Origin: an uncultured Gammaproteobacteria bacterium
GTDB taxonomy: Bacteria; Pseudomonadota; Gammaproteobacteria; GCA-001735895
Assembly: GCA_963768295.1 (NCBI GenBank)
Contig: CAVYHN010000027.1
Span: 127,009-191,008 of the forward strand
Reading direction: 5' to 3'
Length of the DNA stretch: 64,000 nt
A program made the position numbers and the translations under genes. This document shows positions 1,646 through 31,544 of this stretch, piece after piece (position 1 is the stretch's first letter; each line of letters opens with the position of its first letter). The notes under the pieces are model-generated. The model saw only the letters and a program-made list of their open reading frames with translations, searched no databases and was not told the DNA's origin.

Positions 1646-2484
1646 GACGATGCAGCCGGCGCGGTTTTACACCACTGTTCGCGCAAGGGCGCAAACTCTT
1701 CGATCAGTTGCTGGTTGCCGTGTTTGATGGCGCCCCTGAGCAGGATATCGAGCTTTGCCGACAACGTGGCCGCCGCCGCTGCCTGCTGATCGGTCGATAG
1801 ATTTTCTCCGGCGAGCAGTCGATGCAGAGCGCGGACGCGAAACTGATCCATCACCGGATGCTGGCGCGACAACTGGTCGGCGTGGCCGCCATACTTGACG
1901 ATCAGGGCCTGGTCGAGATAGCACACCGGGTAGCGATGGCATAGCCGCAGCCATAAGTCATAGTCTTCGCAGGCGGGAAGGGTTTCGTCGAACAGGCCGA
2001 GTTCCAGCAGCACTGCTTTTTTGATCACCGAGGCGGACGGGGAGATAGCGCATAGCGGCAGGCATTGTTCGAAAATCCAGCCACCGCTTTTACGATGCTT
2101 GTTCATCGGATTGACGCGGACACCGCTGCGCATCCAGATCTCATCGGAGTGGAACAACACGAATTCGGGCTGTTGCCGCTGCGTATCTCGAATTTTTTCT
2201 AGCTTGTCGGGCAGCCAGCGGTCGTCTGAGTCCAGCAACGCTATCCATTCGCAGCCGGCCGCCTCGATACCCCGATTACGCGCGGCGCTGACCCCGAGAT
2301 TCGGCTGGCGCATGATCTTCACCTCGGGAAACGCGCGCGCGACCATGGCGGCGCTGCCATCGGTCGAACCATCGTCGACCAGAATGACTTCATCGGCCTC
2401 TGAGCATTGCTGGTACACCGACTGCAGCGCGCGTTCAAGCGTATGTTTGCGATTGTAGCTAGGTATGACGACGGAGATTTGCAT
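1639..2484 (-). CDS. Family 2 glycosyltransferase
   Basis: MQISVVIPSYNRKHTLERALQSV...DDGSTDGS, a GT2 N-terminal signature with a DxD region (LDSDD). Confidence 0.8.
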   Translation of the reverse strand: MQISVVIPSYNRKHTLERALQSVYQQCSEADEVILVDDGSTDGSAAMVARAFPEVKIMRQPNLGVSAARNRGIEAAGCEWIALLDSDDRWLPDKLEKIRDTQRQQPEFVLFHSDEIWMRSGVRVNPMNKHRKSGGWIFEQCLPLCAISPSASVIKKAVLLELGLFDETLPACEDYDLWLRLCHRYPVCYLDQALIVKYGGHADQLSRQHPVMDQFRVRALHRLLAGENLSTDQQAAAAATLSAKLDILLRGAIKHGNQQLIEEFAPLREQWCKTAPAASSC

Positions 2485-9666: not shown

Positions 9667-10701
9667 ATGGATATAGCTCAACTCCTGGCTTTTGGCGTCA
9701 AACAGGGCGCCTCCGACTTGCACCTGTCAGCGGGATTGCCGCCTATGATTCGCGTCGATGGCGATATTCGTCGCATCAATGTTCCGGAAATGGATCACAA
9801 GCAGGTTCACGACATGATTTATGACATCATGAGTGACAAGCAGCGTAAGGATTACGAGGAATATCTCGAAACCGACTTTTCCTTCGAAATTCCCGGACTG
9901 GCGCGTTTTCGCGTCAACGCGTTTAACCACAATCGCGGCGCCGGTGGCGTGTTTCGGACCATCCCGTCGAAGATTCTCAGCCTCGAGGATTTGAACGCGC
10001 CCAAAATATTCCAGGAAATTTCCGAGTACCCGCGCGGTATCGTGCTGGTTACCGGCCCGACCGGGTCCGGCAAATCGACCACCCTGGCGGCCATGGTCGA
10101 CTACAAAAACGATAGCGAATACGGCCATATCCTGACGGTTGAAGATCCGATCGAATTCGTACACGAAAGTAAAAAATGCCTGGTCAACCAGCGCGAAGTG
10201 CACCGCGATACGCTCGGCTTTAACGAAGCCCTGCGCTCGGCGTTGCGGGAAGACCCCGACACCATCCTGGTCGGCGAGATGCGCGACCTCGAAACCATTC
10301 GCCTGGCCTTGTCCGCGGCCGAAACCGGGCACCTGGTGTTTGGCACCCTGCACACCAGTTCGGCGGCGAAGACCATCGACCGTATCGTCGACGTCTTCCC
10401 GGCGGCGGAAAAAGCGATGGTAAGATCGATGTTATCGGAGTCGCTGAAGGCGGTAATCTCGCAGACCCTGATGAAGAAAATTGGCGGTGGACGTGTCGCT
10501 GCGCATGAAATCATGATCGGCACGCCCGCGATTCGTAACCTGATCCGTGAAGACAAGGTTGCGCAAATGTATTCGGCGATACAGACTGGACAAAATGTCG
10601 GCATGCAGACGCTGGATCAAAATTTGAAATCCATGCTCGCATCGGGCGTGGTGTCCAAAGATGAAGCCCAGCGTAAAGCCGCTAATCCGGATGCGTTATA
10701 A
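9667..10701 (+). CDS. pilT: Type IV pilus retraction ATPase PilT
   Basis: Near-colinear with P. aeruginosa PilT: MDIAQLLAFGVKQGASDLHLSAGLPPMIRVDGD, Walker A GPTGSGKST. Confidence 0.95.
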   Translation: MDIAQLLAFGVKQGASDLHLSAGLPPMIRVDGDIRRINVPEMDHKQVHDMIYDIMSDKQRKDYEEYLETDFSFEIPGLARFRVNAFNHNRGAGGVFRTIPSKILSLEDLNAPKIFQEISEYPRGIVLVTGPTGSGKSTTLAAMVDYKNDSEYGHILTVEDPIEFVHESKKCLVNQREVHRDTLGFNEALRSALREDPDTILVGEMRDLETIRLALSAAETGHLVFGTLHTSSAAKTIDRIVDVFPAAEKAMVRSMLSESLKAVISQTLMKKIGGGRVAAHEIMIGTPAIRNLIREDKVAQMYSAIQTGQNVGMQTLDQNLKSMLASGVVSKDEAQRKAANPDAL

Positions 10702-10732
10702 ACCAGCGATAAAAAGGTGCTAGGGGAGTCTA

Positions 10733-11902
10733 ATGGATCGTAATAAGGCAATCAGTTTTATGCATGACTTGCTGCGCATGATGGTGAGCAAGGATGGGTC
10801 GGACTTGTTTATTACCACGGGCTCGCCGCCGGCGATGAAAATCGATGGCAAGGTCGCGACGGTTTCCAAGCAGAATCTGTCGCCGAACCATACGCAAATG
10901 CTGGCGCGTTCAATCATGAACGACAAGCAGGTTTCCGAGTTCGAGGAAAAGCAGGAGTGTAACTTTTCGATCGCACTGCCCGGGGTGGCGCGTTTTCGTG
11001 TCAATGCATTCGTGCAGCGCGGCAGTTCGGGCCTGGTGCTGCGTATCATCAATTCTGAAATTCCGACTTTCGATGAATTGAACCTGCCGCCGATACTGAA
11101 GGATATCGCGATGACCAAGCGCGGCCTGGTCATTTTCGTCGGTGGCACGGGCTCGGGTAAATCGACTTCGCTGGCTTCCATGGTGGACTACAGAAACCGG
11201 AACACTCACGGGCATATTATTACGATCGAGGACCCGGTCGAATTCGTGCATGACCATCAAAACTGCCTGGTGACCCAACGCGAGGTCGGCGTCGATACCG
11301 AGTCTTATGAAATCGCGCTCAAGAACACGCTGCGGCAGGCGCCGGACGTCATCCTGATCGGCGAGGTGCGCGATCGCGAAGCCATGGAGCACGCGATCGC
11401 CTTCGCTGAAACCGGGCATCTCTGTCTAACGACTCTGCACGCCAACAGCACCAACCAGGCGCTGGATCGTATCATCAACTTTTTCCCCGACGAGCGTCGC
11501 CAGCAGTTGCTGATGGATCTGTCGCTCAACCTCAAGGGGATGGTGTCACAACGCCTGATCCCGAAAATCGATGGTGTCGGTCGTATCCCGGCGATCGAGG
11601 TCATGCTCAATACGCCGTTGATGGCCGACCTTATATTCAAGGGCGACGTGCACGAAATGAAATCGCTTATTGCAAAATCCAACGAGGCCGGAATGCAGAC
11701 CTTCGACCAGGCCCTGTTCGATCTCTACGAAGAGCAAAAAATTACTTTCGAAGACGCCCTGCGTAATGCTGATTCGGTTAACGATATTCGTCTGCGCATA
11801 AAGCTGGAAAGTGACACTGCGCGTAAAACCGGCGTGGTCGAAGACCATCGTGATTTCGAACTCGAGGAGTCGGATGACGATGTCGCTGGCGGTATTATCT
11901 AG
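10733..11902 (+). CDS. pilU: PilU (PilT-family ATPase)
   Basis: Matches the PilU pattern: GSDLFITTGSPPAMKIDG, GGTGSGKSTSLA, LIGEVRDREAMEHAIAFAETGHLCLTTLHAN. Confidence 0.9.
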   Translation: MDRNKAISFMHDLLRMMVSKDGSDLFITTGSPPAMKIDGKVATVSKQNLSPNHTQMLARSIMNDKQVSEFEEKQECNFSIALPGVARFRVNAFVQRGSSGLVLRIINSEIPTFDELNLPPILKDIAMTKRGLVIFVGGTGSGKSTSLASMVDYRNRNTHGHIITIEDPVEFVHDHQNCLVTQREVGVDTESYEIALKNTLRQAPDVILIGEVRDREAMEHAIAFAETGHLCLTTLHANSTNQALDRIINFFPDERRQQLLMDLSLNLKGMVSQRLIPKIDGVGRIPAIEVMLNTPLMADLIFKGDVHEMKSLIAKSNEAGMQTFDQALFDLYEEQKITFEDALRNADSVNDIRLRIKLESDTARKTGVVEDHRDFELEESDDDVAGGII

Positions 11903-11922
11903 CCCTAGCCCGGAGAAGTAGA

Positions 11923-13089
11923 ATGGCCCGCGAACCCACCACGCAACTGCTCGAACCCTATCTGAAAATAATGGTAGATAAACAGGCTTCGGACCTGTAT
12001 TTCGTTACCGGCGCACCGCCCAATATGAAAACCCAGGGCAACACCGCCGCGATTGCCAAGAATCCTTTCCAGAGCGGGCAGGTCATGAAACTGGCATACA
12101 GCCTGCTGAACGACGAGCAGGTGCGGGATTTCGAGATCAACCGTGAATTGAACCTGGGCTTCACGCTGAACGACGTCGGACGCTTCCGCGTCAATATCTT
12201 CATCCAGCGTTCCGAAGTATCGATGGTCATCCGTTACATCAAGTGGGAAATTCCGACTATCGACGAACTCGGCCTGCCGCAGATACTCAAGGAAGTGGTC
12301 ATGAACCAGACCGGCATGGTGCTGGTGGTGGGATCAACCGGTTCCGGTAAGTCGACCACGCTGGCATCGATGCTAAATCATCGCAACAATACTGTCGGCG
12401 GGCATATCCTGACGATCGAGGATCCGATCGAATTCGTGTTTCGGCACGACAAATCGATTGTGTCGCAGCGTGAAGTCGGTATCGATACCCTGAGCTACGC
12501 CAACGCGCTGCGCGAGGCGCTGCGCGAAGCCCCGGAAGTCATCATGATCGGTGAGGCGCGCGACGGCGAAACCATGAAGGCGGCGATCAACTTCGCCGAC
12601 ACCGGTCACCTGTGCCTGACCACGCTGCACGCGGTTAACTCGAACCAGGCGATGGACCGGATCATGAACATGTTTCCGACCGATATGCGTGATCAGCTGT
12701 TGATGGATTTATCGCTCAACCTGAAGGCGGTTATTTCGCAGCGCCTGGTGCCGGGCATGCAGGGTAAACTGGCCTGTGCGGTCGAGATCATGATGAACAC
12801 GCCTTATATTTCAGAACTGTTGCGCGAGGGTAATTTCAACGAGATCAAGGAAATCATGGAGAAGGGCGATACCACCGGTATGCAGACCTTCGACCAGTCG
12901 CTTTACCATCTCTACAAGGCGGATGCGATCACGATCAAGAATGCGCTGGCCTACGCGGATTCCAGTACCAACCTCGAATGGAAGATCAACTTCGGTGGTG
13001 AGCAACCGTCATCGCAGGATACCCGCCACCAGCTGAACAAGCAGGGCGCTGCACTTGAAGAGTTGACCCTGCCCTCCGAAGAAGACTAG
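11923..13089 (+). CDS. Second PilU/PilT-family ATPase paralog
   Basis: Motifs ASDLYFVTGAPPNMKTQG, GSTGSGKSTTLA, GHLCLTTLHA. Third tandem retraction ATPase. Confidence 0.85.
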   Translation: MAREPTTQLLEPYLKIMVDKQASDLYFVTGAPPNMKTQGNTAAIAKNPFQSGQVMKLAYSLLNDEQVRDFEINRELNLGFTLNDVGRFRVNIFIQRSEVSMVIRYIKWEIPTIDELGLPQILKEVVMNQTGMVLVVGSTGSGKSTTLASMLNHRNNTVGGHILTIEDPIEFVFRHDKSIVSQREVGIDTLSYANALREALREAPEVIMIGEARDGETMKAAINFADTGHLCLTTLHAVNSNQAMDRIMNMFPTDMRDQLLMDLSLNLKAVISQRLVPGMQGKLACAVEIMMNTPYISELLREGNFNEIKEIMEKGDTTGMQTFDQSLYHLYKADAITIKNALAYADSSTNLEWKINFGGEQPSSQDTRHQLNKQGAALEELTLPSEED

Positions 13090-13527: not shown

Positions 13528-14208
13528 ATGAGGAGTAAGATGAAGCTTAAATCATTCTTGGTTGGTTATTGTTTATTTTTATACTCTGGCCAAACTTTGG
13601 CAGCATTAATAACGTACGACTATTCATTCGATACACCACAATTTAACGAAAACCCGTTTGGGCCGGTGAATGATTTACTCCAGCTTGCGGGGTCAACGAT
13701 AACTGGATCTATAACTCTGGATACAGACAATATTGGTGTTCGCAATCCGATAGGGACACGGACTTGGGATGGTTATGCGGTGAGTTCTGGAGGACTAACT
13801 CACAGTGGAGAACTAGACCTGGTCGGTTTCGATACTCAAGCTAGTGTAGCCTATACGCCATATCTCCCAGATAACCCGGGCACTATTCTTAATAGTATTT
13901 CGGGTTGGACTATCCAAGATAGTGATGAGATTCGATTCGATCTTACAATTGACTTCGAACAACTACGAGTTGCAGCACAGTGCTCGGACTTAAAACCAGA
14001 TCCCGATGATATTGGTGTATACGACGCTTGCATAGAAAATGGCAGTACTTATAACAGGAGTATTGCGAATTATCGACCATTAACGAACCTCAGTTTAGCT
14101 CAAGTTCCAGCATCCCCATCACCTGTCCCAGTACCAGCAGCTGTGTGGTTATTCGGTACAGCACTTATTGGATTAGTAGGATTTAGTAAGCGAAGAAAAT
14201 CTGCTTAA
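13528..14208 (+). CDS. Secreted protein with a VPLPA-CTERM (exosortase-type) sorting signal
   Basis: N-terminal signal peptide. C-terminus VPVPAAVWLFGTALIGLVGFSKRRKSA. Confidence 0.7.
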   Translation: MRSKMKLKSFLVGYCLFLYSGQTLAALITYDYSFDTPQFNENPFGPVNDLLQLAGSTITGSITLDTDNIGVRNPIGTRTWDGYAVSSGGLTHSGELDLVGFDTQASVAYTPYLPDNPGTILNSISGWTIQDSDEIRFDLTIDFEQLRVAAQCSDLKPDPDDIGVYDACIENGSTYNRSIANYRPLTNLSLAQVPASPSPVPVPAAVWLFGTALIGLVGFSKRRKSA

Positions 14209-14232
14209 CCAATAGCCTGTGAATTAACTTGA

Positions 14233-14262
14233 AGCCCCGCTATCGTGCGGGGCTTTTTTTTA
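14233..14262 (+). terminator. Rho-independent terminator
   Basis: agccccgc-tatcgt-gcggggct hairpin followed by T9. Confidence 0.75.
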
Positions 14263-14270
14263 TTGAATGG

Positions 14271-14375
14271 TGAGTGTCCGAAATTGGCCAAAAAATGTCT
14301 CCCACTAAAGCTCTATGAGCGTCAGCTTACGAGAAAACCGACGCTCAGACTCGATACATCAGGGGCAAGAACCGA
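14271..14375 (+). repeat. Island repeat copy I1 (modules M1-M2)
   Basis: gagtgtccg..ttggcc...gagcgtcagcttacgagaaaaccgacgctc hairpin. Confidence 0.6.
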
Positions 14376-14564
14376 CCCAACTGAGACACTGCTGCCAAAC
14401 ATCTCAGCCAATCAGGTGGTAGATTTAATCCCGATCCACCTAATAAAGTCGAGATAACAATTACCTATAACAAATCAAACGTGGCTATCAGAATAATGTT
14501 TGATGTGTAATTATGAACATCCATCGGGCCGCAAATATTAAACAAAAGATAGGGAGTAAAGATT

Positions 14565-16043
14565 ATGCGTACTTTTAGTTTATTAGCTGCACTATTTGTT
14601 ACATTTATGATGTTTAGTCTCCAAGCAAAAGCACAAAGCATTCCTCCGGCCTCCGATTGGAGCGCCAGTAACGTTATCACTCTAAATAGAAACTCTCCTG
14701 AACCGACCATGGCAGTGATTGATATTGCTACCGGCGTACTCCTGTCTTACGACGCGCCAACTGGCGGAATCAATGTTGGCACATCGGGACGCCAATACAA
14801 TTTTGTTACCAATGCATCGGTATCTAGTATTCTCACGTTCGACTTATCTATCGACGCAATTAACGGAACATTCAATAATTCGCTAACACTAGAAATCCTA
14901 CATAATGGTAACGTCGTTAGTACTCTGGATTCGACAACTGCGAATACATACACTGCTGATTTTCCAAATCAATCTCTGGACCTTAGTGCCGGTGACTCTT
15001 GGGGCATAAGAGCAACTGCTGGCAACTTTTCTCAGAGCACTGGGACAAGTTCCGAGATTTTAGTAACAAGTATAGAAAATCAAGTCCGATATGATGTTGC
15101 AGATGATTGGAGCGATATTCAAAATCCGAACGGTGTCTGGACCTACGCGGGCGACAGCGGAGCTCTATTGACCATCAATCAGACGGACTGGGATCCGGGG
15201 AATATATTCTTCTCTAGCCAGCAGCAAGCATGGGCTGACGCGATATTCCCAACTCCTGGGCATGTGCCGATGTGGTTCAGGACCTCAGGGCCTTCCGCTC
15301 TAGATGTAACCGGGGTGGGCATGCACGGTTCGGAGGGAGGCAACGTTGCGTGGGTCGGAGTTGTCTGGACGAGTCCGACAGATGGAACGATCAATATTGA
15401 TGGCGGCGTATGGCATGCATTTAAGGCGATTGACAGTTTTGGAAGTGACCACCGGGTCAGAAATTCGGATTGGAGACTTAGACTCAATAACACTGTGCTT
15501 GCTTCCGGAAATGTTTCTGGCACGGATGGTTTTTCGTCCGCCTCACCCTTCGCATTTTCTGCCGGGTCCAACGGCACGTCGTTAAGTGATATACCCATAG
15601 TAGCGGGTGATGACCTGGTCCTGGAATTCATCAGTCCCACTAGTTTCGCGACATTTATTGGTATCGATTTTGTTGTGACTCTTAATCATCCCACTCCCGT
15701 AAGCACACCGCAATGCGACATCCAGTTGAACCAGGCTAACTATGTCGATGGTGAAACAGTAACCGCGAACGTTTTCCGTTTTGCAAATCCGACAGGGGTT
15801 CCTGTTGCAACGGAGATAAAATGCTGGTTGGGCGTGCCCGGAGTTCCACCCATACCAGTTATCAATGTTGGCGCAGATGGTAGTGTCGTGTTCCCAGCAG
15901 GCATGGATATTGATTATGGACCCATTCCACTCTTTCCTGTTACCGGCCTGCCGCGTGGTAGCTACGAGTTGAGCTGTCGCTTGCTGGACCCAGTTACCGG
16001 TGAACTTCTCTGCGAAGATCGTAACTTTTTCGACATCCAGTAA
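14565..16043 (+). CDS. Secreted hypothetical protein (492 aa)
   Basis: Signal peptide MRTFSLLAALFVTFMMFSLQAKA; Ser/Thr/Asn/Gly-rich. Confidence 0.55.
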   Translation: MRTFSLLAALFVTFMMFSLQAKAQSIPPASDWSASNVITLNRNSPEPTMAVIDIATGVLLSYDAPTGGINVGTSGRQYNFVTNASVSSILTFDLSIDAINGTFNNSLTLEILHNGNVVSTLDSTTANTYTADFPNQSLDLSAGDSWGIRATAGNFSQSTGTSSEILVTSIENQVRYDVADDWSDIQNPNGVWTYAGDSGALLTINQTDWDPGNIFFSSQQQAWADAIFPTPGHVPMWFRTSGPSALDVTGVGMHGSEGGNVAWVGVVWTSPTDGTINIDGGVWHAFKAIDSFGSDHRVRNSDWRLRLNNTVLASGNVSGTDGFSSASPFAFSAGSNGTSLSDIPIVAGDDLVLEFISPTSFATFIGIDFVVTLNHPTPVSTPQCDIQLNQANYVDGETVTANVFRFANPTGVPVATEIKCWLGVPGVPPIPVINVGADGSVVFPAGMDIDYGPIPLFPVTGLPRGSYELSCRLLDPVTGELLCEDRNFFDIQ

Positions 16044-16065
16044 ATAGGTAGATCCAAGACCACTA

Positions 16066-16089
16066 AGCCCCGCTCCGGCGGGGTTTTTC
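16066..16089 (+). terminator. Rho-independent terminator
   Basis: gccccgc-tccg-gcgggg hairpin followed by T5. Confidence 0.65.
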
Positions 16090-16099
16090 ATTTCTGCCG

Positions 16100-16262
16100 A
16101 GCGTCTCTTGTTGGCCGATTCGAGAAGCCTGGGAGGCAGATTTCAGCGTCTCCTATTGAGAAAACTGACGCTCACACCTGATGAAGCAGCGGCGATCTAC
16201 GACCCACAACGGACCCTCAGCGTTCCAGCTTTGCCGCGTCCGGCTGCATGCGCTTGTTAGAG
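16100..16262 (+). repeat. Island repeat copy I2, complete (M1-M2-M3 plus the 3' attC-like unit 16204-16262)
   Basis: cttgttggccga...agcgtctcctattgagaaaactgacgct...cagcggcga...CCACAAC..gctgcatgcgcttGTTAGAG. The TTA of the terminal core is the stop codon of minus-strand gene 16257-16877. Confidence 0.7.
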
Positions 16263-16877
16263 TTTTTTGGAGCTATTGGCTCTCGCTGCATATAGGCCCA
16301 GTAATCCAGAGGCAAACAATACCAATGCCCCTGGAATGGGTACAGCGCTTATTGTTCCACTGACGTTGGATTCCAGATCGCCAAATTGTGTTAAAGCACC
16401 TTGAAGCGCTCCTACTCTCAATCGGTCAATAGTACTACTTAAGACTAGGTCAAAAAGCTCAGTCGTGCTTCCAGGAGGTAAAAAAGGATTTGTGCCAATG
16501 TCAAATACAATGCTGAAACTACCAGCTGTAATTCCGTCAATTGTTGGACCAGTTCCTGTAAACAATAAATTAAACCAACCCGCTGAATTGATCGTAGATA
16601 TTAAAGCATTTTCTGCAGTGAAGGCTTGCGCTCCGTAAGTACTATCAATCCAACTGAATGTGCCAGAAACACTGTCGATTGTTGATGTGCTAATGTTCCC
16701 ATTACCAATGTTGAATATGATGTCCGATGTGACCGTTGTTCCAATAGGTAACAAGTTTAAAGCCTGTGGAAGTCCACTGCTCATATCAGCTGAGGTGTTT
16801 ACTGACACCAATGCTGCATGGGAATTGGTTGCAATGACTAAAGTTATTGCTCCAAGTAATTTGACTAGTAGTTTCAT
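16257..16877 (-). CDS. Secreted protein with a PEP-CTERM/VPLPA-CTERM-like C-terminal sorting signal
   Basis: Signal peptide; C-terminus VPIPGALVLFASGLLGLYAARANSSKKL. The stop lies inside the repeat core, and GTTAGAG sits 38 nt upstream of the ATG. Confidence 0.6.
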   Translation of the reverse strand: MKLLVKLLGAITLVIATNSHAALVSVNTSADMSSGLPQALNLLPIGTTVTSDIIFNIGNGNISTSTIDSVSGTFSWIDSTYGAQAFTAENALISTINSAGWFNLLFTGTGPTIDGITAGSFSIVFDIGTNPFLPPGSTTELFDLVLSSTIDRLRVGALQGALTQFGDLESNVSGTISAVPIPGALVLFASGLLGLYAARANSSKKL

Positions 16878-17135
16878 ACTTTCTCCTTGTTGTGCTTCTT
16901 TCTTCTTAAAACTCTAACTTTGATTTAGACGGATGCTGTATTTTTCGGCAATAGACGGAATCCGCCTATTGCATTTGATTCTTTTTATGAAAATAGATGG
17001 CACGTCATTGTTATTATGTATTTTCCTGGTTCCTATTTCCTAAAAATATTTATGGCAATCCGAGATTCCGCTTTTCGTCAAAAGAGTTATACCAGCCTAT
17101 CCAGGCGAACTCAACGAATGCCCGGTTCGTGCCTG

Positions 17136-17345
17136 AAGCAGTAGTTATATTACAAATCCTGAATGTCGGCTGTTGGCCGAAGATTGCCTCCCGCCCTAGT
17201 TTTTTGAGGGTCTCCTTTGGAGAAAACAGACGCCCAAAAATTCCCATTGAGCGGCAGAAACCGCATCCCGAAACAGACGCTCGCGCCAGTGTCGAACCAA
17301 TTGCGCCGCGGGCGCTTTGTCCGATTGCATGCGCTTGTATGGTTG
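17136..17345 (+). repeat. Island repeat copy I3 (long 5' extension, then M1-M2-M3 and the 3' unit)
   Basis: The 48-bp extension gaagcagtagttatattacaaatcctgaatgtcggctgttggccg is identical to copy I11. It contains the exact 19-mer ttggccgaagattgcctcc. It ends GTCGAAC...gattgcatgcgcttgtatgg. Confidence 0.7.
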
Positions 17346-17410: not shown

Positions 17411-18535
17411 TCACTCGTCGAACGAACAAGGCGACAGGCTCATTTTCGGGCCCTGCCCAAGTAACCAGGTTGTCAGTTTATCGGGATCCACTCCAAAACC
17501 ATCCCAGAGGTCCTCATCAAGGTGAACCTCCGAATCGATCGAGTATGAATGAAACTCGGGACTGTCGAAGATATATGGAAAGCTACCTTTCCAGCGACCG
17601 CCGCATACACAATTTCGGGTTGGCTCCGGCGAACATTCCCATCGACGCCGTAGCAACAGTTTTTGTCCCGCGACCGTGTTCTCGCAAGCGACAGATGGAA
17701 AACCAACGCCGAGCGCGATGTAAATCGGGGCGGTTTCCTGCGACAGGCCCTCGCATTTAACAAGTTCGAAATGTGGGTCGATGATATCGACCGGTGATAC
17801 TTCTCCAGATGCGTAGCGTTTTTCGAGTTCGGCCTCGAGTTCGCCCAGCGGCGTATCGGGGTCACTCGGTCTCAGCACACGCTTGCGAAACGCTGCGGCG
17901 CCAACCGCTATCTCACTGTGATCAATGACCCTGCCGGGCGCGCCGTCCCAACTCGCGAGTGCACGAGCGACAGCGGCGAAATGATCCATCGCCTCTTCTC
18001 TGCAAACATTGGGGCGTATCCGGAAAGGCCAGGGCTCCGTGAGCTGCCAGACGACCTCACCGTTTTGCCGATCCTTTAGTAGATAGGTTATATCCGTGAA
18101 TTGCCCGGCGTTCTTACTGATCTGCCAACCTTTCGGGGGATAGATTTTCGGGAGATATTTTATCATCGTGAACGGCTGGACGTCGGGCTTAATGATTTGC
18201 CAATCTTTCGGGAGATAGATGATATCCGGCTTTGAGGCTCTACTTTCCAGGGAGTATCTGGCGGCTGCGCCCTGATGCACCAGCGTCAGACCACTTCGGT
18301 CCAGCCAGTTGGCCAATACCTCGCCGAACTGCGCCTCGTACAAAAAGAACTTATAGCCCGCCCAACTCCGACAGCTGAAACCAGGCCCGGGGACGAACCC
18401 TTGTGGCTGATGTATCAAGATACTGTCACTGACGGTCGCGGTGGGGGTAACGCTAACCGGAGGTCTAAGCTGTTTCGGCGAGTTCGTGATGCCACAGCCA
18501 ACGAGCAAAAAAATACATGCGGCCAATGCCGCCAT
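17411..18535 (-). CDS. Hypothetical lipoprotein
   Basis: ORF 17411-18592. The likely start is MAALAACIFLLVGCG with a lipobox LVGC. No recognisable domain. Confidence 0.5.
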   Translation of the reverse strand: MAALAACIFLLVGCGITNSPKQLRPPVSVTPTATVSDSILIHQPQGFVPGPGFSCRSWAGYKFFLYEAQFGEVLANWLDRSGLTLVHQGAAARYSLESRASKPDIIYLPKDWQIIKPDVQPFTMIKYLPKIYPPKGWQISKNAGQFTDITYLLKDRQNGEVVWQLTEPWPFRIRPNVCREEAMDHFAAVARALASWDGAPGRVIDHSEIAVGAAAFRKRVLRPSDPDTPLGELEAELEKRYASGEVSPVDIIDPHFELVKCEGLSQETAPIYIALGVGFPSVACENTVAGQKLLLRRRWECSPEPTRNCVCGGRWKGSFPYIFDSPEFHSYSIDSEVHLDEDLWDGFGVDPDKLTTWLLGQGPKMSLSPCSFDE

Positions 18536-18889
18536 GTGACCGAGGGCGACGCCCGAACTAAACCGCCGACAGCTAAATATGGGCTTTTCCAAGTGCTTCT
18601 CCCGTGGGCATAGTACAAATAACTAGAAGAATAAAAGTTCTATCTGCCAGTATCAATCGGCGAAATCAAATCCAGGATCTATCCTTTTTTTCTGTTATTT
18701 ACTGTAATGCCTGAATAATTGCCCACCGTTTTGCCTTTTGTTCCCTAATGTTTAACAGTTGATTATTTGGAGGGCTCAACTGGTGTTTTATGCAGTTGGT
18801 ACAAATATTGCGATGTTAAGCAAAATTTTGTCATCTATTTTCAATAAACTCTATGTCCGCTTCTGGCTATTCTCGGAAGCCTGGACCTT

Positions 18890-18965
18890 GAATGCAAGCG
18901 TCTGTTATTGAGGGAGTGCCCGCGCCGAGAAGTTTATGATGACTGATTGCGCTTGCTATGTTCCA
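18890..18965 (+). repeat. Island repeat, degenerate 3' unit (I16)
   Basis: gcaagcgtctgttattgaggga...ctgattgcgcttgctatgttcc. It supplies the stop TAG of gene 18956-19213. Confidence 0.45.
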
Positions 18966-19213
18966 CCCTTCATTCCCGGTACTTCACCTTCAAATCCCTC
19001 TGCGATTCTTTGGCGCGCACTTCCGAGCAAAGATTCGTACTCCTGATCGAAAAATGCAGGCGAAGTCCTATCGATCTGTCCAGCTATCTTCATCAGGGCG
19101 ATGTATTCAGCAGAATGGATGAATTCAAGTTTATCTGATTCGTCGAATCTGTGAAAAAAATCGAATAAGACCACTGCCTCATCTTCAGTGATGTTCAAAG
19201 TATAATCGTTCAT
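18956..19213 (-). CDS. Small hypothetical protein (85 aa)
   Basis: ORF bounded by repeats; no recognised domain. Confidence 0.4.
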   Translation of the reverse strand: MNDYTLNITEDEAVVLFDFFHRFDESDKLEFIHSAEYIALMKIAGQIDRTSPAFFDQEYESLLGSARQRIAEGFEGEVPGMKGGT

Positions 19214-19248: not shown

Positions 19249-19370
19249 CGGTTTTTATCCTGATAACATATCGTCACGATATATGTGGGAGGCTGCTATT
19301 GGTCGATCTCAGAAGCTCAACTTTCGAGAATGAGCGCCTCCTGTGAGGAAACCGTGAGGAAACCGGGACA
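19249..19370 (+). repeat. Island repeat copy I4 (5' extension, M1-like, M2-like)
   Basis: ggtttttatcctgataacatat...gggaggctgctattggtcg...gagaatgagcgcctcctgtgaggaaacc. Confidence 0.5.
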
Positions 19371-20086: not shown

Positions 20087-20143
20087 TTATGTATCTACTG
20101 AATCGGGGCAAGAGCAGTTAACGGCTGCTCTTCATAATTATCT

Positions 20144-20266
20144 GGGCGTCCGGTGTTGGCCGAAGATTGCCTCCTACCATGACTTGACGAGCGGCAGCTT
20201 ACGAGAAAGTTGCCACTGAAATCATATACACCAGCAGCCGATTTCGGTTATTCAATTTGTTAGGTG
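20144..20266 (+). repeat. Island repeat copy I5
   Basis: gggcgtccggtgttggccgaagattgcctcc...tgccactgaaatcat..cagcagccg...tttGTTAGGT. The TTA of the core is the stop of gene 20260-20499. Confidence 0.65.
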
Positions 20267-20499: not shown

Positions 20500-20524
20500 T
20501 CAGTTCATCGGCTCTTCTCACCTG

Positions 20525-20589
20525 GCGCCTCGCATCAGCGGCAAAATGCGCGCGTAGCGGGCACTTTGTCCGACAGCATGCGCTTGTTA
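20525..20589 (+). repeat. Island repeat copy I6 (3' attC-like unit only)
   Basis: catcagcggcaaaatgcgcgcg...ctttgtccgacagcatgcgcttGTTAGGGC. Confidence 0.6.
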
Positions 20590-20593
20590 GGGC

Positions 20594-20872
20594 TCATTGG
20601 AAAATATTCAAATTTTTTTTCCGTTCCTCGGTGAATTCCCACCATTTTTTTAAAGGGCCACCTTCCATATATCTCACCGCGGAAATGAACACATCAAGAA
20701 CGCATGGGTCGTGTCTCTTTTGTGTGATGCTGCAAAGGTCTCTATATAACTGATATGGATCTTTCCCTATCAGTTCGGTTGGCTTATCCAGGCCTAAAGC
20801 AAAGAAATCTTTCTCAATAGCTAAACCAACGTTTGGGATGTCACGAAATTGGTTTATGTCGCTCCGTTTCAT
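20594..20872 (-). CDS. Helix-hairpin-helix small protein (TfoX-C/Cdd1-like)
   Basis: DIPNVGLAIEKDFFALGL...DPCVLDVFISAVRYMEGG. GTTAGGT lies 14 nt upstream of the ATG and CCCTAAC lies at the stop. Confidence 0.5.
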   Translation of the reverse strand: MKRSDINQFRDIPNVGLAIEKDFFALGLDKPTELIGKDPYQLYRDLCSITQKRHDPCVLDVFISAVRYMEGGPLKKWWEFTEERKKNLNIFQ

Positions 20873-20887
20873 TTCTATTCTTTGATG

Positions 20888-21055
20888 ACCTAACAGTCTA
20901 ATTATAAGGTTTTTGACCTGATAACATATTACCGCTTCAATGATGGGAGGCTGCTCCTGGCCGAAATACGAAGCTCATCGTATGCGATCGAGCGTCTTCT
21001 TTGGGGAAAACAGATCCTCAAATTACATAAATCAGTGGCGATAAACGATCCTAGT
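20888..21055 (+). repeat. Island repeat copy I7 (CCTAAC core, then M1-like, M2 and M3)
   Basis: aCCTAACagt...gggaggctgctcctggccg...gagcgtcttctttggggaaaacaga...atcagtggcgataaacgatcc. Confidence 0.55.
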
Positions 21056-21127
21056 GTGGCTGACTTTTAAGCCACGAATTTTAGGGGAATGTATCTTTCA
21101 CCATTTGATTTTGGCCAATTTTTAAAT

Positions 21128-21988
21128 TCAGTTTCGCGACCAAACTCGCGGGTATAGATCTGTTCCCGGGCGATCACCCGGCTTGAGTCCATGTTCTGTC
21201 ATGACGGAGCTGTGATCTGGATCCATCCCGCAGTCCCTAAACTTGATGCGTACGTCATCGCCCAGCCACTTGGTAGTGAATACTCGCAAGTCGGTATCTT
21301 CATGTAGTTTGCCCGACCCGCCATGTATGATCCGGCTATTGAAAGCCACACAGTCGCCCGGTTGCATATCCCAGCTTACGACACCGAAACTTTCAGGGTC
21401 GGCATCAATGTCTGGGAGGGCAACTTCAGTGACGCCCGAGAAATCGACCTGGTCGACCGCTATTTTGCCATCCGGATTTAAAGCACCGAAGTTGTACTGG
21501 TAAAACACGGAGTCGAGTCGGTGAGAGCCGGGCACGAAAGCCAGAGCGTTTTCCCGTTTGACCGGAACCAGCGGCATCCAAAGAGTGCAAGTGTCATAGC
21601 CCTCCACAGACCAATAGGGCTCGTCCTGGTGCCAGGGCGTAGCAAACTGACTGCCCGGGGAGCGCACAAATACTGCATCGAAGTAGAAGTTGATATGTGC
21701 CGACTTCATCAACTGGCCGGCAATTTGGGCGGCGGGCGAATCAAAAATAAACTGTCGGTACTCGTTGATACCCTGCCATGCCTGGCTATCCCAAAACATG
21801 GTGCGTCCCTCGGCGTCCCGGTCCCACACGCGAGAGCGGTCTGTCGGATCTTCACAATTGGCGATCAGCCCCTTATCCAGCAGATCAATCCATTCCAGGT
21901 CAAACAAACCGCGAAGCAGGACAACTCCGTCACGTTGATAGGTTGTAATCTGCTCTGATGTAACTGGGCGAAGTAAATCACTATTCAT
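21128..21988 (-). CDS. Phytanoyl-CoA dioxygenase (PhyH) family Fe(II)/2-oxoglutarate oxygenase
   Basis: 286 aa; HQDEPYW (HxD) and a downstream H...R region typical of PhyH. Confidence 0.75.
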   Translation of the reverse strand: MNSDLLRPVTSEQITTYQRDGVVLLRGLFDLEWIDLLDKGLIANCEDPTDRSRVWDRDAEGRTMFWDSQAWQGINEYRQFIFDSPAAQIAGQLMKSAHINFYFDAVFVRSPGSQFATPWHQDEPYWSVEGYDTCTLWMPLVPVKRENALAFVPGSHRLDSVFYQYNFGALNPDGKIAVDQVDFSGVTEVALPDIDADPESFGVVSWDMQPGDCVAFNSRIIHGGSGKLHEDTDLRVFTTKWLGDDVRIKFRDCGMDPDHSSVMTEHGLKPGDRPGTDLYPRVWSRN

Positions 21989-22397
21989 AATTTTTATATT
22001 TTAAGTATGAAAGTTTTAAATACAAGAAGTAGGTCTTGTTTAGCCATAGGCGTAAATAGGAAAATTCAGTGAGTAATTACATTGGCGTGAAAACAATTGT
22101 CTATGGAAATAAGATGGTTGCTTAGTTACCACTGTTTTAAACCGGAATCAGTCTATTCAGCAGAATCGGAGACGGATATGAACACCTCTATCTAAGCTCG
22201 TCCCAAAGCCAATGGCTGCTTGTGGCGAAGATCGCCACCCAGTTCTTGTATTTAAGTGTCTGCTTGTGAAACGCATCGCAAAAAAATCCTTAACGGATCG
22301 AAATTGCGGATTCATTTATACGAAGTGTGTGATGGTAGACATATATTTCCCATGACGCGTCTTATTCTTTAGGTATTATGCGTCACGAAAAATCATT

Positions 22398-22700: not shown

Positions 22701-22750
22701 TCCCATTCTTTTTGGCGTGCAACCTGGTCAGACAGAGTTAAAGTAAAGCT

Positions 22751-22927
22751 CAGTGGCAGCTGTTGGCCGAGGGTCGCCTCTGAACTCTAAGTTTTGAGTG
22801 TCAGCTAACGGGAAAGCAGGCGCTTAAAACTCAAAGATCAACTTCCCGCTAACTACTCAAAGCTGATATTCAGCACCAGGCAAACTGAAGCCGTATTGTT
22901 CTATCCGACTGCATGTGCTTGTTATGG
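22751..22927 (+). repeat. Island repeat copy I8, complete (M1-M2 plus the 3' unit 22847-22927)
   Basis: cagtggcagctgttggccgag...gagtgtcagctaacgggaaagc...CGCTAACtactcaaagctg...atccgactgcatgtgcttGTTATGG. The TTA is the stop of gene 22922-23164. Confidence 0.7.
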
Positions 22928-23164
22928 TTTTTTCTTTTGATCGCCCCCTTTGCTGCCGTTACTATCGCCGATACCATAACCAGAAGGGAAAGATATCCAT
23001 TTCCCATGATCTGCACCATGAGAAATTCCTACTCCCAATATGACCGGCAAAATACCCCACAGACTATCATCATGCAGGATCACGTAAAACCCATATCCGA
23101 GAATGCAAAGCCCTATAATTCTTTGAATATATATTCGTCTAATTGAGTAGTATTGAGTAACCAT
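22922..23164 (-). CDS. Small membrane protein
   Basis: ORF 22922-23173. The ATG at 23164 lies inside the GTTATGG core of repeat I9. Hydrophobic 80-aa product. Confidence 0.4.
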   Translation of the reverse strand: MVTQYYSIRRIYIQRIIGLCILGYGFYVILHDDSLWGILPVILGVGISHGADHGKWISFPSGYGIGDSNGSKGGDQKKKP

Positions 23165-23219
23165 AACGCTCAAATCAGCGGCACAGCTTTGCTAGGTCCG
23201 ACTGCATGCGCCTGTATGG
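23161..23219 (+). repeat. Island repeat copy I9: minimal 59-bp attC-like unit with inverted 7-bp termini
   Basis: CCATAAC-gctcaaatcagcggcacagctttgctaggtccgactgcatgcgcc-TGTATGG. It fills the whole spacer between two minus-strand genes. Confidence 0.65.
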
Positions 23220-23239
23220 TTCTGTGTGCAATATTGGAA

Positions 23240-23625: not shown

Positions 23626-23790
23626 TAGCGTTAAAAAATAATTGACCGTACGACATATTATCACTTTATTATTGGGGGGTCGCTATTGGCCGAAGATTGC
23701 CTCCTGGCCCAGCCAATTGAGCGTCTCCTTGCGAGAAAACTGCCACTGAAATCATTAGAATCAGCAGCCGCGTCCGATCCTAAGCCGACA
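23626..23790 (+). repeat. Island repeat copy I10 (GCCTAAC core, M1, M2, M3)
   Basis: GCCTAACagtagcg...gctattggccgaagattgcctcc...gagcgtctccttgcgagaaaactgccactgaaatcat...cagcagccg. Confidence 0.65.
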
Positions 23791-23934
23791 CTGGGAAACG
23801 AAATTTCAAGAGCTGCTATGTGCCCGAAGCTGCCATTGATACCGACATGACCTGCGTTTTTAGTGACGTAAAGTGGTGCGAAATATGCTCGTGTCTATGT
23901 GAATGTTAGCTTGCTTAGATAACTAACATGCTTA

Positions 23935-25371: not shown

Positions 25372-25488
25372 GAACTCTTTATTCTCCTTAAGAGCTAACA
25401 GAGAATTCTACAGACTCCCTGTTTACTGAGTTTTAGGGAGTCTGTAAAACCCAGTATACGTGAATGGGCAAAGGTCTCCTAAGTGCCG

Positions 25489-25600
25489 GAAGCAGTAGTT
25501 ATATTACAAATCCTGAATGTCGGCTGTTGGCCGTACCAGGAAGCTCGAAACCCGCGTTTAAGTGTCTGTTTACGAGATAAAATCACGCAAGACAAAATAC
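25489..25600 (+). repeat. Island repeat copy I11
   Basis: Shares the 48-bp 5' extension with I3, then ttggccgtaccaggaagctcg...gtttaagtgtctgtttacgagataaaatcacgc. Confidence 0.6.
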
Positions 25601-25953: not shown

Positions 25954-25973
25954 CTCAGGCCTTTTATTTATGC

Positions 25974-26040
25974 GGCCGTTCCTGGCCGAAGATTGCCTCC
26001 GAACTTTTTTTTGAGTGTCGGCCTAGGGAAAGCTGATCCT
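25974..26040 (+). repeat. Island repeat copy I12 (M1-M2)
   Basis: gccgttcctggccgaagattgcctccgaactttttttgagtgtcggcctagggaaagc. Confidence 0.6.
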
Positions 26041-26565: not shown

Positions 26566-26657
26566 CTTGATGCCCCTGTCGATAAAGAACGCTATAGGTA
26601 AATATAGGATGTACCCGATATTAATCCAATCCCTGATTCCAGCTGCCCCTCAATATC

Positions 26658-26757
26658 ACGAACTCAGCGGCGAAAGGCGACCCAATGCCGACCCCCGCAA
26701 ATGTTTCGAATTGCCAGTGTAACGGGTACTTTGCTCGACTACATGCACTTTTAATTA
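26658..26757 (+). repeat. Island repeat copy I13 (M3 plus a degenerate 3' unit)
   Basis: CACGAACtcagcggcgaaaggcgaccc...ctttgctcgactacatgcacttttaattaagg. Confidence 0.5.
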
Positions 26758-26795
26758 AGGAAAACTGCTGTTTGATCCTTTACTCTGTTGGTTCT

Positions 26796-27632: not shown

Positions 27633-27802
27633 TTTCTCACCATGATCGGTTAGTAGAACTTCGATTGAGGTGAGTATAAATCCCCAAATTTCTGGCTACG
27701 ACCCGTCGAGGAATAGTAGCGGAATATGCAACTAAAGGGATTGCTGCCTACTACATCTTCGGAGAAATCCATGACTTGATTACACATAATCAAGCATTTG
27801 GC

Positions 27803-27880
27803 GAGTGTCAGCTCCTGGCCGTACCAAGAAGCTCGCAACTCTTTAATGAGCGTCTCCTTTGGAGAATGAGCAGGACTGGC
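27803..27880 (+). repeat. Island repeat copy I14 (M1-M2)
   Basis: gagtgtcagctcctggccgtaccaagaagctcg...gagcgtctcctttggagaatgagc. Confidence 0.55.
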
Positions 27881-28022
27881 CCACGATAATTTCACCCTGC
27901 CATGGGTATGGCTTAGTCGATTTGCTCGGGTTTGTTGCAAGCAGGTGTTTATTCCTCTTTTACTCATTGGGTCATCGCTGAGCCTACGTTAAACTGAGAA
28001 TAATCGTTTTTCGCCGAGGTAA

Positions 28023-31000: not shown

Positions 31001-31178
31001 ACACAATGACCTGCTGACTACACTTTCCTTGCTTGGCAATAATCCGAATGTCCTCGAAGGACGGTTATTTCGTTTGAATATCAATCTGGAAAGTAATATC
31101 GGTGCAATCCTGAACGCCCTCGGCCAGGCTTATGGAGTATCCAGTAAAGCCCTTCAGCGAGTGTTCAGATTACACTAG
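28023..31178 (+). CDS. ydbH: YdbH-family (AsmA-like, DUF940) large envelope protein
   Basis: 1051 aa with an N-terminal TM anchor, followed by ynbE and ydbL homologs as in E. coli ydbH-ynbE-ydbL. Confidence 0.75.
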   Translation: MEAMGKYVLTFLKLLPGLLFLAGLGLYIFRVPLMDSLLIGQLTRLGVPMNSVTVKEVSLNELELRKLSLGAANELRADKINATWTLPGLFEGELQTVEISGLQLLLDLTGKNHPLGSLQKLIGNEGDTENNKLPQVSLLDAKVDLHTALGNFTVNLHGDIKPGPSDKKLIAINIETSAEPGHVIADLTATLEAGGKLQGVLTVSQAALSLPDLNISEIRGKSSFEWKDNRPQAISADFVLSHIGLPGGGPQDEAFEQGVITLQMNATDARIKGELLAAEHASGLAFTVTLNDYRRQPGIVADVTAEVNADSVIWRLSGLSQPDKGFASLTVRADGKTPALRTAGDNWRSWLQHSTLQGQGILRLDGLDFAQKVADLNGDVEIKTELADGLGKLTLAEDSSIEASGLDPDWIERLGIPSTLLAGLKQDTKLRITSKGENSATVTIGMMADETQMDLATDLEFIVDKARADISARAEVIISRQNQVTVFKLGEVNVISSGFKYAGNTIDKLTLSGNLQGSADTWAGELDLAADAKRFHLGQLAARQTSVSLPMRVNFKEQGGQLSLRKPGQMTVAKLAPFKAFRVKGPLKLHLPRSDIRFAWGSRGLSLENQVTLQPGNFTLLVNRDDAPELEMEIRPGKISHTGRMETTGQIDGKSIISAAGITLPQYQIQLEEITTTISHGESGELQLADFRIDRLQHLAPKPYFAPISLAGHVKLGSKRLFIDALGGIPGKQYLKLAAVHGLDTGEGNLKLDVAPLTFSPGALQPVALFPGLGMLKSVSGSASASNHIGWLKTGIESGAEINIQNLSFTQNGTTVSDLSAALQLTDLLSPKSLPRQKITVRRLDPGVAMEDMEIIYRIQGTDSTQLAIDQAQLSMIGGTLSTGPVVIDPLSSSTNLVFQVANLDLEALFKLIDVEGLAGDGRLDGSIPLTLRNESVSIEDGVLTANKPGILRLKSEKVSNLLAGSAEDVDLLLQALTEFHYTELILKMNNSAHNDLLTTLSLLGNNPNVLEGRLFRLNINLESNIGAILNALGQAYGVSSKALQRVFRLH

Positions 31179-31302
31179 GCATACTGCCCATCGTTGATGC
31201 CCGGGGTAGATGGGTATCTGGATTACTGCTAAGCTGATTTTGTAATTGGTAAGTATTTATCCGCCAGGATAATGTGAAATTAACCCGGAGTGAGTACGAT
31301 CT

Positions 31303-31503: not shown

Positions 31504-31544
31504 TGAAAGTATTTACCAGTAAATATATTTTTCGGGAGGACAGC

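Follow-up and report, generated by a model that had tools for sequence, protein, structure and literature searches.

The 64,000-nucleotide stretch of DNA analysed in this work (hereafter, the window), which comes from an uncultured Gammaproteobacteria bacterium (contig CAVYHN010000027.1 of assembly GCA_963768295.1), contains a low-GC island at about 13.1–32.3 kb (GC 0.39–0.50, versus 0.55–0.61 in the flanks) to which a family of intergenic repeats is confined. By reading all the copies and by searching with a hidden Markov model (HMM) and with a covariance model of integron recombination sites (attC), 17 repeat sites were located between positions 14271 and 32118, every one of them on the + strand (Table 1). 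The genes of the island lie in both orientations and include, according to Pfam, those for two PEP-CTERM-type proteins, VF530, Cdd1, PhyH, FHA, tRNA_bind, a beta-lactamase-fold protein, DUF411, and ydbH-ynbE-ydbL. The flanks carry housekeeping genes: proC, yggS/T, three pilT/U paralogues, a RIO kinase gene, pyrB/C, gshB, a PilJ-type chemoreceptor gene, ahcY with an S-adenosylhomocysteine (SAH) riboswitch, metK, and tkt. On balance, we lean towards the interpretation that the repeats are the inter-cassette recombination sites of a chromosomal, integron-type array without integrase, set among these housekeeping genes and comparable to the clusters of attC sites lacking integron-integrases (CALIN).

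A first-pass annotation of the segment 16100–17345, which comprises two repeat copies and the gene between them, had described the repeats as three modules (M1, M2, and M3) plus an attC-like 3' unit, all kept on one strand. A family of this kind is indeed present far above chance expectation: besides the single orientation of the 17 sites, the M1 19-mer TTGGCCGAAGATTGCCTCC gave four matches at up to three mismatches and none in 100 shuffled sequences, and the flanking genes do switch strand while the repeats keep theirs. The 19-mer, reported as exact in four copies, is so in three of them (17173, 20156, and 23686), but the fourth has one mismatch and is located at 25982 instead of 25986; the 18-mer TGGCCGAAGATTGCCTCC is exact in all four M1 copies. 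The consensus sequences of M2 and M3 agreed with those given previously, and the 5' extension common to two copies was found to be real, with 98% identity over 51 nt (17129–17179 versus 25483–25533). Direct-repeat families D2, D5, D6, D8, D9, and D16 were detected by repeat search. The modules occur in differing combinations, as had been noted, and these take the form of left halves, right halves, and fusions involving two kinds of site: canonical attC sites, and a compound element, M, made of M1, M2, M3, and a closing repeat (a-M1-M2-M3-a').

Table 1. Repeat sites and associated features of the island. The first column gives the starts of the 17 repeat sites, all of which read on the + strand of the window; attC sites are listed on the cassette top strand.
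Site start (+)	Span	Strand	Feature	Evidence or context
14271	14271–14393	+	Full M (a-M1-M2-M3-a')	nhmmer 81 bits, hmm 3–125; 63 nt past the stop of the PEP-CTERM gene (+)
16098	16098–16221	+	Full M, subtype-2 M1 (TGGCCGATTCGAGAAGCC)	nhmmer 61 bits; alignment
	16202–16263	-	attC, left arm overlapping a' of the preceding M (composite)	Covariance model R1, 30.3 bits, E 9e-6
	17129–17179	+	Left flank + a + TTGGCCG	98% identical to 25483–25533; family D16
17160	17160–17283	+	Full M, subtype-1 M1 with exact 18-mer	nhmmer 92.9 bits
	17271–17344	-	attC overlapping the a' end of M (composite)	R1, 26.7 bits, E 8e-5; followed by the stop of gene 17411–18592 (-)
18851	18851–18960	+	Short composite: a degenerate attC R''-L'' arm joined to a-M1-M2L at the M2 loop	Family D6
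19286	19286–19351	+	M left half, broken in the M2 loop	Family D9; VF530 gene (+) begins 160 nt downstream
20143	20143–20246	+	M with truncated a'	nhmmer 79 bits, hmm 3–106
20518	20518–20593	-	Canonical attC	R1, 60.3 bits; gene 20594–20872 (-), Cdd1 family (Pfam), stops 1 nt off
20945	20945–21050	+	M cut at CGATCC/ (X4, just before a')	Joined to the PhyH segment 21051–22052
22205	22205–22269	+	M left half	nhmmer, hmm 4–64; upstream of the FHA gene (+)
22750	22750–22927	+	M + attC R''-L'' arm	ORF 22922–23173 (-) stops within GTTATGG
23159	23159–23221	-	Canonical 63-nt attC	R1, 79.9 bits; single-stranded DNA fold; pair counts
23673	23673–23799	+	Full M	nhmmer 98 bits
25515	25515–25577	+	M left half, subtype-2 M1	Has the 51-nt flank common to 17129–17179 on its 5' side
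25971	25971–26040	+	M left half + M2	Left border of the DUF411 cassette; homology with locus L010 begins at TGGCCG
26641	26641–26760	+	M right half (M2R-M3-a') + degenerate attC R''-L'' arm	Right border of the DUF411 cassette
27802	27802–27866	+	M left half	Upstream of the ydbH-ynbE-ydbL operon
31996	31996–32118	+	Full M	Downstream of ydbL

The attC-like character of the 3' unit was confirmed in a more specific form: it is one arm of a canonical integron attC and, taken together with M3, it constitutes the attC hairpin on the minus strand. The family as a whole is related to attC, and its members mark the boundaries of cassettes. In its short form, the site reads on the + strand as xxTAAC-GCCTCGCATCAGCGGC-(variable loop)-GTCCGACTGCATGCGCTT-GTTAGxx (23159–23221 and 20518–20593 in the window, and related loci), with a length of 63–76 nt. 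The attC features were assessed on these two short sites and on the composites 16202–16263 and 17271–17344. Their minus-strand ends (CCATAC...GTTATGG, CCCTAAC..., and CTCTAAC...) are inverted R''/R' cores, and the sites are placed just 3' of a cassette open reading frame (ORF) in the same orientation. The stops of five minus-strand ORFs fall within the R'' end or up to about 70 nt from it (16257, 17411, 20594, 22922, and 23240), those at 16257 and 22922 being the TTA inside GTTAGAG/GTTATGG; on the top (minus) strand, the stop codon of gene 16257–16877 (-) thus falls inside the R'' sequence CTCTAAC. The stop of gene 18956–19213 (-) also lies within a site, in the GCTATG of the short composite 18851–18960. 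Since the GTTAG arm is the longer one, with extra bases, and minus-strand ORFs stop there, the cassette top strand corresponds to the minus strand of the window, and the + strand is the attC bottom strand.

When folded as single-stranded DNA, the segment 23150–23222 formed a 7-bp R box (AACCATA/TATGGTT), an unpaired spacer, a bulged L box in which GTCCGACTG, with bulged T and A, pairs with CAGCGGC, and a small loop. The terminal loop of the attC sites varies from 13 to 40 nt, and helix pairing in six sites reached 92–93% in the L box plus spacer and 56% in the outer R box. The covariance model built from six sites (R1) recovered four attCs in the window, on one strand only, two of which take their left arm from a', the 3' end, of the preceding M.

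The structure of M was established from copies of related genomes. It is about 125 nt long, with the consensus GAGCGTCCGCTTC-TGGCCGAAGATTGCCTCC-CACCAGGGCTTTAT-GAGCGTCTCCTTTGGAGAAAACAGACGCTC-AAACTCGATGAATCAGCGGCGATTTACGACCC-AAAGCGGACGCTC, and is built from four copies of a unit of about 23 nt (a GAGYGTC box, a spacer, GG, and a purine run), two direct and two inverted, because of which the consensus is able to form two nested hairpins with the same stem. The direct copies are site I, GAGCGTC-CGCTTCTGG-CCGAAGA, and site II, GAGCGTC-TCCTTTGG-AGAAAAC, which carry TGGCCG and GGAGAA, respectively, at matching positions; the inverted copies are M2R and a', the latter reading GAGCGTC-CGCTTTGG-GTCGTAAA on the other strand. 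The consensus ends in 12-nt terminal inverted repeats (GAGCGTCCGCTT/AAGCGGACGCTC) and contains an internal palindrome. Two features tie M to attC: an attC-like R'-L' arm, CTCAAAC-TCGATGAATCAGCGGCG, is embedded in it, and M3 (ATCAGCGGCG) is a homologue of the attC L' arm. When copies were sampled independently of M1, TGGCCG was the sole constant part of that module (91 of 119 copies), the rest falling into subtypes, and it thus stands as a conserved island of 6–8 nt between a variable linker and a variable M1. Another small repeat, about 70 nt long (TCGSYWGGTTATTCRGGGRAAAATTCTYAAATTTCGGATTT..CCATCGG), was observed inside the M2 loop of several M copies from different metagenome-assembled genomes (MAGs), at 3357–3492 and 2125 of locus L070, 4243 of L017, and 4760 of L062.

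M itself does not have the structure of an attC. Its ends, GAGYGTCCGC and GCGGACRCTC, have no R''/R' cores, and the attC covariance model matched it only where an R''-L'' arm follows, and a large attC of the type of the Vibrio cholerae repeats (VCRs) was rejected on these grounds. The suggestion that GTTGGCC and AGCTAAC are R'/R'' cores could not be maintained, as they are copy-specific variants not conserved in the family, and M1-M2 gave no match to the covariance model, contrary to the proposal, taken literally, that the spacers hold tandem empty attC cassettes. A small ORF with the minus-strand GGAGG as Shine-Dalgarno sequence was also considered and discarded: no start codon follows it, and the frames vary between copies.

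Regarding the folding of M, RNAalifold did not predict a single consensus pair in 89 distinct copies. In hand-drawn helices, 65.9% of the cells were paired, versus a mean of 65.9 ± 0.5 in shuffled alignments, and the covariation score was 0.158 versus 0.159 in the shuffled ones; controls with slid partners gave 30–43% pairing. The M consensus is therefore self-complementary, but single copies do not compensate: the variable base of GAGnGTC/GACnCTC changes independently on each side, and the M2 variants described as compensatory-looking are not so over the 89 copies. M copies of the window folded like shuffled sequences (z from +1.1 to -0.9), whereas some MAG copies folded better (z from -2.8 to -4.95), and the counts of G-T versus A-C mismatches gave a mixed signal as to the folding strand. 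If the two sides of the hairpin routinely come from different cassettes, this lack of covariation is to be expected; the same holds for R'' and R' of attC. Searches of Rfam, at the gathering threshold and at E ≤ 5, returned nothing on the repeats. Sub-threshold Rfam matches at 14154–14264 were set aside, as they all fall on one spot, the 3' end of the PEP-CTERM gene, and fit a terminator-type hairpin, and so was a match to the 3' end of RsmY at 16065–16086, which is the GC hairpin and T-run past the gene 14565–16043.

Related DNA amounting to about 1.1 Mb, from MAGs of uncultured Gammaproteobacteria and from metagenomes of marine sediments, was gathered through exact matches to the 18-mer or to an M2 20-mer. 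The 18-mer scan of GTDB genomes yielded 91 stretches; nearly all of the real matches came from MAGs of uncultured Gammaproteobacteria, and a single MAG often had them on at least ten contigs. The M2 20-mer was present in no fewer than 120 metagenome contigs from marine or estuarine sediment. About 445 M matches and 83 attC R''-L'' arms were counted in this DNA, and the attC covariance model found nine sites in 476 kb of it. M and attC agreed in strand in a ratio of 71:4. Of the loci with several copies, 46 of 48 and 56 of 61 (102 of 109 in total) had all of them in one orientation, palindromic double matches accounting for most of the seven others, and the median spacing between M copies was 1107 bp, roughly one copy per gene. 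We conclude that M marks most boundaries, is evolutionarily tied to attC, and is lineage-specific. Loci were also compared for presence/absence polymorphism of cassettes, and no clean case was found among them; outside the M calls, an M2-like hairpin (CGATCGGCGTTTCTTTGGAGATCGACGCTCCAA) was observed at the exact point of a 435-nt indel between L078 (6330–6351) and L132 (1340–1791).

Comparison of cassettes located the points at which they switch. The 5' edge of M is sharp, with 199 of 225 HMM matches beginning at positions 1–15, and its 3' ends fall mainly in two places, the M2 loop and the full length. Left halves (a-M1-M2L...GGAGAAA/) and right halves (/AAAGCAGACGCTC-M3-a') are each found alone, and attC arms are also fused to M left halves at the GGAGAAA/ point. 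Four junctions, X1 to X4, were distinguished. The cassettes that different genomes have in common are 88–98% identical. At X1, in about 20 independent cassette pairs, an identity of about 90–97% starts or stops exactly at TGGCCG, in either direction, and beyond it lie different M1 subtypes or unrelated DNA; in the window, 17129–17179 and 25483–25533 are 98% identical through TTGGCCG and diverge thereafter. X2 corresponds to the breaks of half-elements at GAGAAA in the M2 loop. X3 is AAA/C after M2R, a position equivalent to the R' cleavage site of attC; it was seen between L023 and L045 (CTCAA/) and in the DUF411 cassette, where the homology with the MAG locus L010 (94% identity) ends past M2R (..GCCCCT/CAA). 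X4 is CGACC/C before a', with a case at 21050 of the window. When the integron-type crossover G/TT or AA/C was looked for in M, some junctions were found to be CTCAAA/C or GAGAAA(A/C), but the commonest one, TGGCCG, is without GTT/AAC. Because TGGCCG provides only 6–8 conserved bases amid variable flanks, these junctions favour a site-specific event over homologous exchange.

Two gene segments of the window were observed in other genomes in informative contexts. The PhyH dioxygenase gene, together with its own terminator and upstream region (21051–22052), is joined to M at CGATCC/ and is 88–90% identical to segments of two other MAGs (6743–7743 of L036 and 4187–5108 of L061) in a non-array context; the conserved downstream sequence is the same in both, and L061 has an unrelated ORF and a terminator-like hairpin upstream. 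Judging from these alignments, PhyH may be a chromosomal gene recruited into the array. The ydbH-ynbE-ydbL genes, which as a rule are core genes, have orthologues about 90% identical in L028 (621–4942, versus 27802–32118 in the window), and both operons are preceded by an M-type site, which in the window is a left half and in L028 a full M. Past ydbL, the homology stops about 23 nt into the element 31996–32118, where no M was called in L028. M sites can thus persist at orthologous positions around non-cassette genes.

Mobile elements use M as a defined site. IS110/IS1111 (DEDD) transposase domains were identified in 2 of 149 locus ORFs of 180–460 aa; these two were the sole transposases connected with the repeat. 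In L073, an insertion sequence (IS) at 534–1870, with a PF01548 + PF02371 transposase, occupies the linker of M at X1 (GAGCGTCCG-CT-[IS]-CT-GTTGGCCG), bordered by CT at either end and bearing the subterminal inverted repeats TAATCGGGCGTCA/GTCAGCCCGATTA. In L101 (about 1430–2106), TGGCCG is directly adjoined by the gene of a distantly related transposase, oriented like the L073 element; both share one exact position and one orientation in M. Members of the IS1111 family target one attC end or repetitive extragenic palindromic (REP) sequences through a seekRNA, ISKpn4 and ISPst6 being directed to attC ends and ISPa11 to REP (PMC11187229). M is therefore treated by IS1111/IS110-family elements as attC and REP sites are, and its linker/TGGCCG is a natural target of a new class for such RNA-guided recombinases.

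The window and the related loci were also searched for a recombinase. Neither Pfam analysis of 40 ORFs nor tblastn with IntI1 revealed an integrase or transposase in the window. With no intI beside it, the array does not make up a complete integron, which would have intI, attI, and Pc next to the cassettes, and is at most CALIN-like. In the 120 metagenome loci, the sole tblastn match to IntI1 was a frameshifted, generic tyrosine-recombinase fragment in L159, a C-terminal piece (..HDFRHTCASRLIQNG..LGH..RYAHL) at 1698–2082 (-), 1.4 kb from an M copy. No TnpA-, TnpB-, or IscB-type protein was present among the 40 ORFs of the window and 168 locus ORFs of 180–919 aa, a size range in which an IS200-type TnpA of about 130–150 aa would be missed. 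The gene families recurring among the loci belong to the cargo and comprise adenylate cyclase/TPR regulators, PhyH, hydrolases, methyltransferases, and transporters. Duplication of a tRNA- or tmRNA-derived att site was rejected as a general explanation, with no tRNA or tmRNA in the window and only two tRNAs in 37 loci; in L046 (about 4623–4700), an M copy (a-M1-M2) is directly followed by a tRNA 3' end (GGTCGGAGGTTCAAGTCCTCCCAGGCCCGCCA), in which ARAGORN recognised no full tRNA.

Several features of the surrounding DNA were recorded as well. At its left edge, the array directly adjoins a tandem of three PilT/PilU-type ATPase paralogues (9667–13089, +; families D3, D7, and D10), which share about 70% DNA identity over several hundred bases. 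The SAH riboswitch (RF01057, 57 bits, 57212–57284, -) lies just upstream of ORF 55778–57196 (-), which has the size of an S-adenosylhomocysteine hydrolase, and metK is next to it (57365–58564, -). In the very large protein encoded by ORF 48576–54503 (1975 aa), an acidic repeat of Glu, Ala, and Val arises from about 10 copies of a 12-nt tandem repeat, (GAAGCCGAAGTT)n, at 51255–51402 (+).

Based on these results, the interpretation that we favour is the following. Two kinds of site, attC hairpins and M elements of about 125 nt, would act side by side and always co-oriented, and cassettes would be joined or exchanged at fixed points of M, with X1 as the main junction and X2, X3, and X4 as further ones. 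Left halves, right halves, M elements without M1, and fusions of M with attC arms would then be the products of exchange at X1 to X4, and the modules would occur in different combinations because they are the segments between fixed crossovers. The anatomy of the sites, the organisation of the arrays, the positions of the junctions, and the lack of covariation are directly shown. We infer that such exchange is site-specific and catalysed in trans; for attC and for X3 (AAA/C), IntI is a plausible enzyme, and TGGCCG fits no known IntI core.

A number of observations weigh against this interpretation. The ratio of M to attC is about 5:1, and an attC arm comes after only 15 of the 203 full M elements, so that most boundaries have no site known to be used by IntI, and X1 itself is without a GTT/AAC triplet. 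No IntI1 match was obtained in the window or in the 91 loci (tblastn, a result to be taken as a lead), and no recombinase recurs in the 1.1 Mb of related loci. Gene orientation within arrays is only mildly biased (82 versus 57, by crude ORF calling), whereas it is strongly biased in classical integrons, and each genome has clusters of M on many contigs, as would be expected of a dispersed repeat rather than of one integron. Finally, selection of loci by exact 18-mer or 20-mer inflates the apparent sharpness of the junctions at those motifs.

A more far-reaching possibility, to which we give a real but minor chance, is that M is the site of a cassette-capture system distinct from the integron. 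The GAGYGTC boxes, perhaps folded into nested hairpins on one of the strands, would then be the recognition sequence of a recombinase acting in trans, and exchange would take place at TGGCCG and at the paralogous GGAGAAA, which would produce co-oriented arrays with genes facing either way at many chromosomal places; the attC arms would have been co-opted by this system or would be ancestral to it.

Somewhat less probable is that M is a passive, dispersed intergenic repeat, such as REP elements and the bacterial interspersed mosaic elements (BIMEs), enterobacterial repetitive intergenic consensus (ERIC) sequences, or non-autonomous miniature inverted-repeat transposable elements (MITEs). It would have spread by transposition and become mosaic through microhomology or homologous exchange and gene conversion, with attC sites as mere neighbours. 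The terminal inverted repeats and internal palindrome of the consensus, the copies on many contigs per genome, and the copies that flank core genes at orthologous positions (ydbH operon, L028) are in agreement with this origin, and the lack of covariation and the shuffle-like folding of the window copies fit neutral decay. The strict co-orientation in 102 of 109 loci, the regular spacing of about 1.1 kb with about one copy per gene, the sharp 5' edge with a variable 3' edge, and the shared arms of composite sites, with M and attC co-oriented 71:4, speak against it, as do breakpoints at a 6-nt motif amid variable sequence, which is too short for RecA-type exchange. An ordinary MITE, which the first-pass annotation had set against its own proposal, was not what was found: the consensus has ends resembling terminal inverted repeats, but orientation is uniform within the arrays and the 3' end is variable.

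Mobilisation of the cassettes as single-stranded DNA by an HUH enzyme (IS200/IS605 TnpA, REP-associated tyrosine transposase (RAYT), or Rep-like) acting on GAGCGTC/GACGCTC hairpins and cutting the unpaired DNA beside them, with M comparable to the palindrome-associated transposable elements (PATEs), seems improbable. It would account for the strict single-strand orientation and for the two nested same-stem hairpins, where TGGCCG and GAGAAA, 8–10 nt 3' of the 5' arm, would be unpaired. A GC skew of about +0.03 to +0.04 in the flanks suggests, in addition, that the + strand is the lagging-strand template. However, neither a Y1/HUH transposase nor TnpB or IscB was encoded by the scanned ORFs of the window and of the loci (at least 180 aa in the latter), hairpin potential is weak in many copies, and there is no strand-specific excess of G-T wobbles.

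Even less can be said for catalysis of the X1 exchange by an IS110/IS1111-type DEDD recombinase with a seek/bridge RNA, the cassettes being its non-autonomous passengers, which we consider very improbable. Two unrelated elements of this family sit exactly at X1 in the same orientation, the one in L073 with its CT borders and subterminal inverted repeats, and in this family recombination takes place at a short core and the elements are able to transport cargo (PMC11187229). Nevertheless, only these two were found among more than 400 M copies, the cassettes do not carry IS ends, and the simplest reading is that M serves as a target, as attC does for ISKpn4 and REP for ISPa11 (PMC11187229).

Least probable of all, to the point of being nearly discounted, is a structured non-coding or cis-regulatory RNA beside each gene, as the first-pass annotation had also proposed, since the self-complementarity of the consensus relative to slid partners, the good folding of some MAG copies, and the conservation of unpaired motifs (TGGCCG and GAGAAA) are opposed by the lack of Rfam matches at E ≤ 5, of RNAalifold pairs in 89 copies, and of pairing or covariation beyond that of shuffled alignments, and by a position relative to genes that is not fixed, M lying after + genes and before or after - genes.

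Turning back to the integron-type array that we favour, the relevance of the window is that a lineage of uncultured sediment Gammaproteobacteria has hundreds of co-oriented boundary elements bearing attC arms, with exchange mainly at TGGCCG. Genes lie in both orientations in its arrays, and in the PhyH case a chromosomal gene with its native flanks would have become part of one. If the exchange is enzymatic, either the substrate range of integron integrases extends beyond the attC hairpin or a second cassette system exists, and in both cases these loci provide a natural data set on how cassettes arise. The origin of cassettes and of attC, and the abundance of integrase-less attC clusters, are open questions in the field.

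Literature searches (for a 17-mer and for similar arrays) and Rfam gave no description of M; to our knowledge, integrons are the only well-understood cassette-array system, and M was compared with them and with other repeats. Like the targets of IS1111/IS110 elements (attC ends and REP), M is a repeated, potentially folded chromosomal site used at one position and in one orientation; unlike those described, the target here is the linker/TGGCCG of M, and the IS is rare relative to the repeat. With the PATEs of IS200/IS605 and with REP/RAYT it would share strand-specific elements with hairpins and cleavage beside the hairpin foot, but no cognate HUH/TnpB gene was found in the scanned ORFs, and M lies between cassettes and not at the two ends of a short element. 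As in the BIMEs of Escherichia coli, pneumococcal BOX, and ERIC, short intergenic modules with a palindromic consensus occur in several combinations; those repeats, however, are scattered in both orientations without exchangeable gene units, whereas M is array-forming, co-oriented, and linked to attC. In contrast to integron attC sites, most boundaries carry M instead of a foldable R''-L''...L'-R' hairpin, M lacks RYYYAAC/GTTRRRY ends, its main junction is TGGCCG and not G/TT, and the crossover lies in or near the 5' part of the site and not 6 nt from its end; in addition, genes in the array point both ways, and there are many clusters per genome. The resemblance to sedentary chromosomal integrons and CALINs, exemplified by the VCRs of about 125 bp, extends nonetheless to co-oriented repeats with imperfect dyad symmetry, a spacing of about 1 kb with single genes, a low-GC island, and repeats that are homogeneous in the lineage. 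The arrays also contain canonical attC hairpins, with stop codons in R'', and cassette-type cargo, and, as in CALINs, no integrase adjoins the array.

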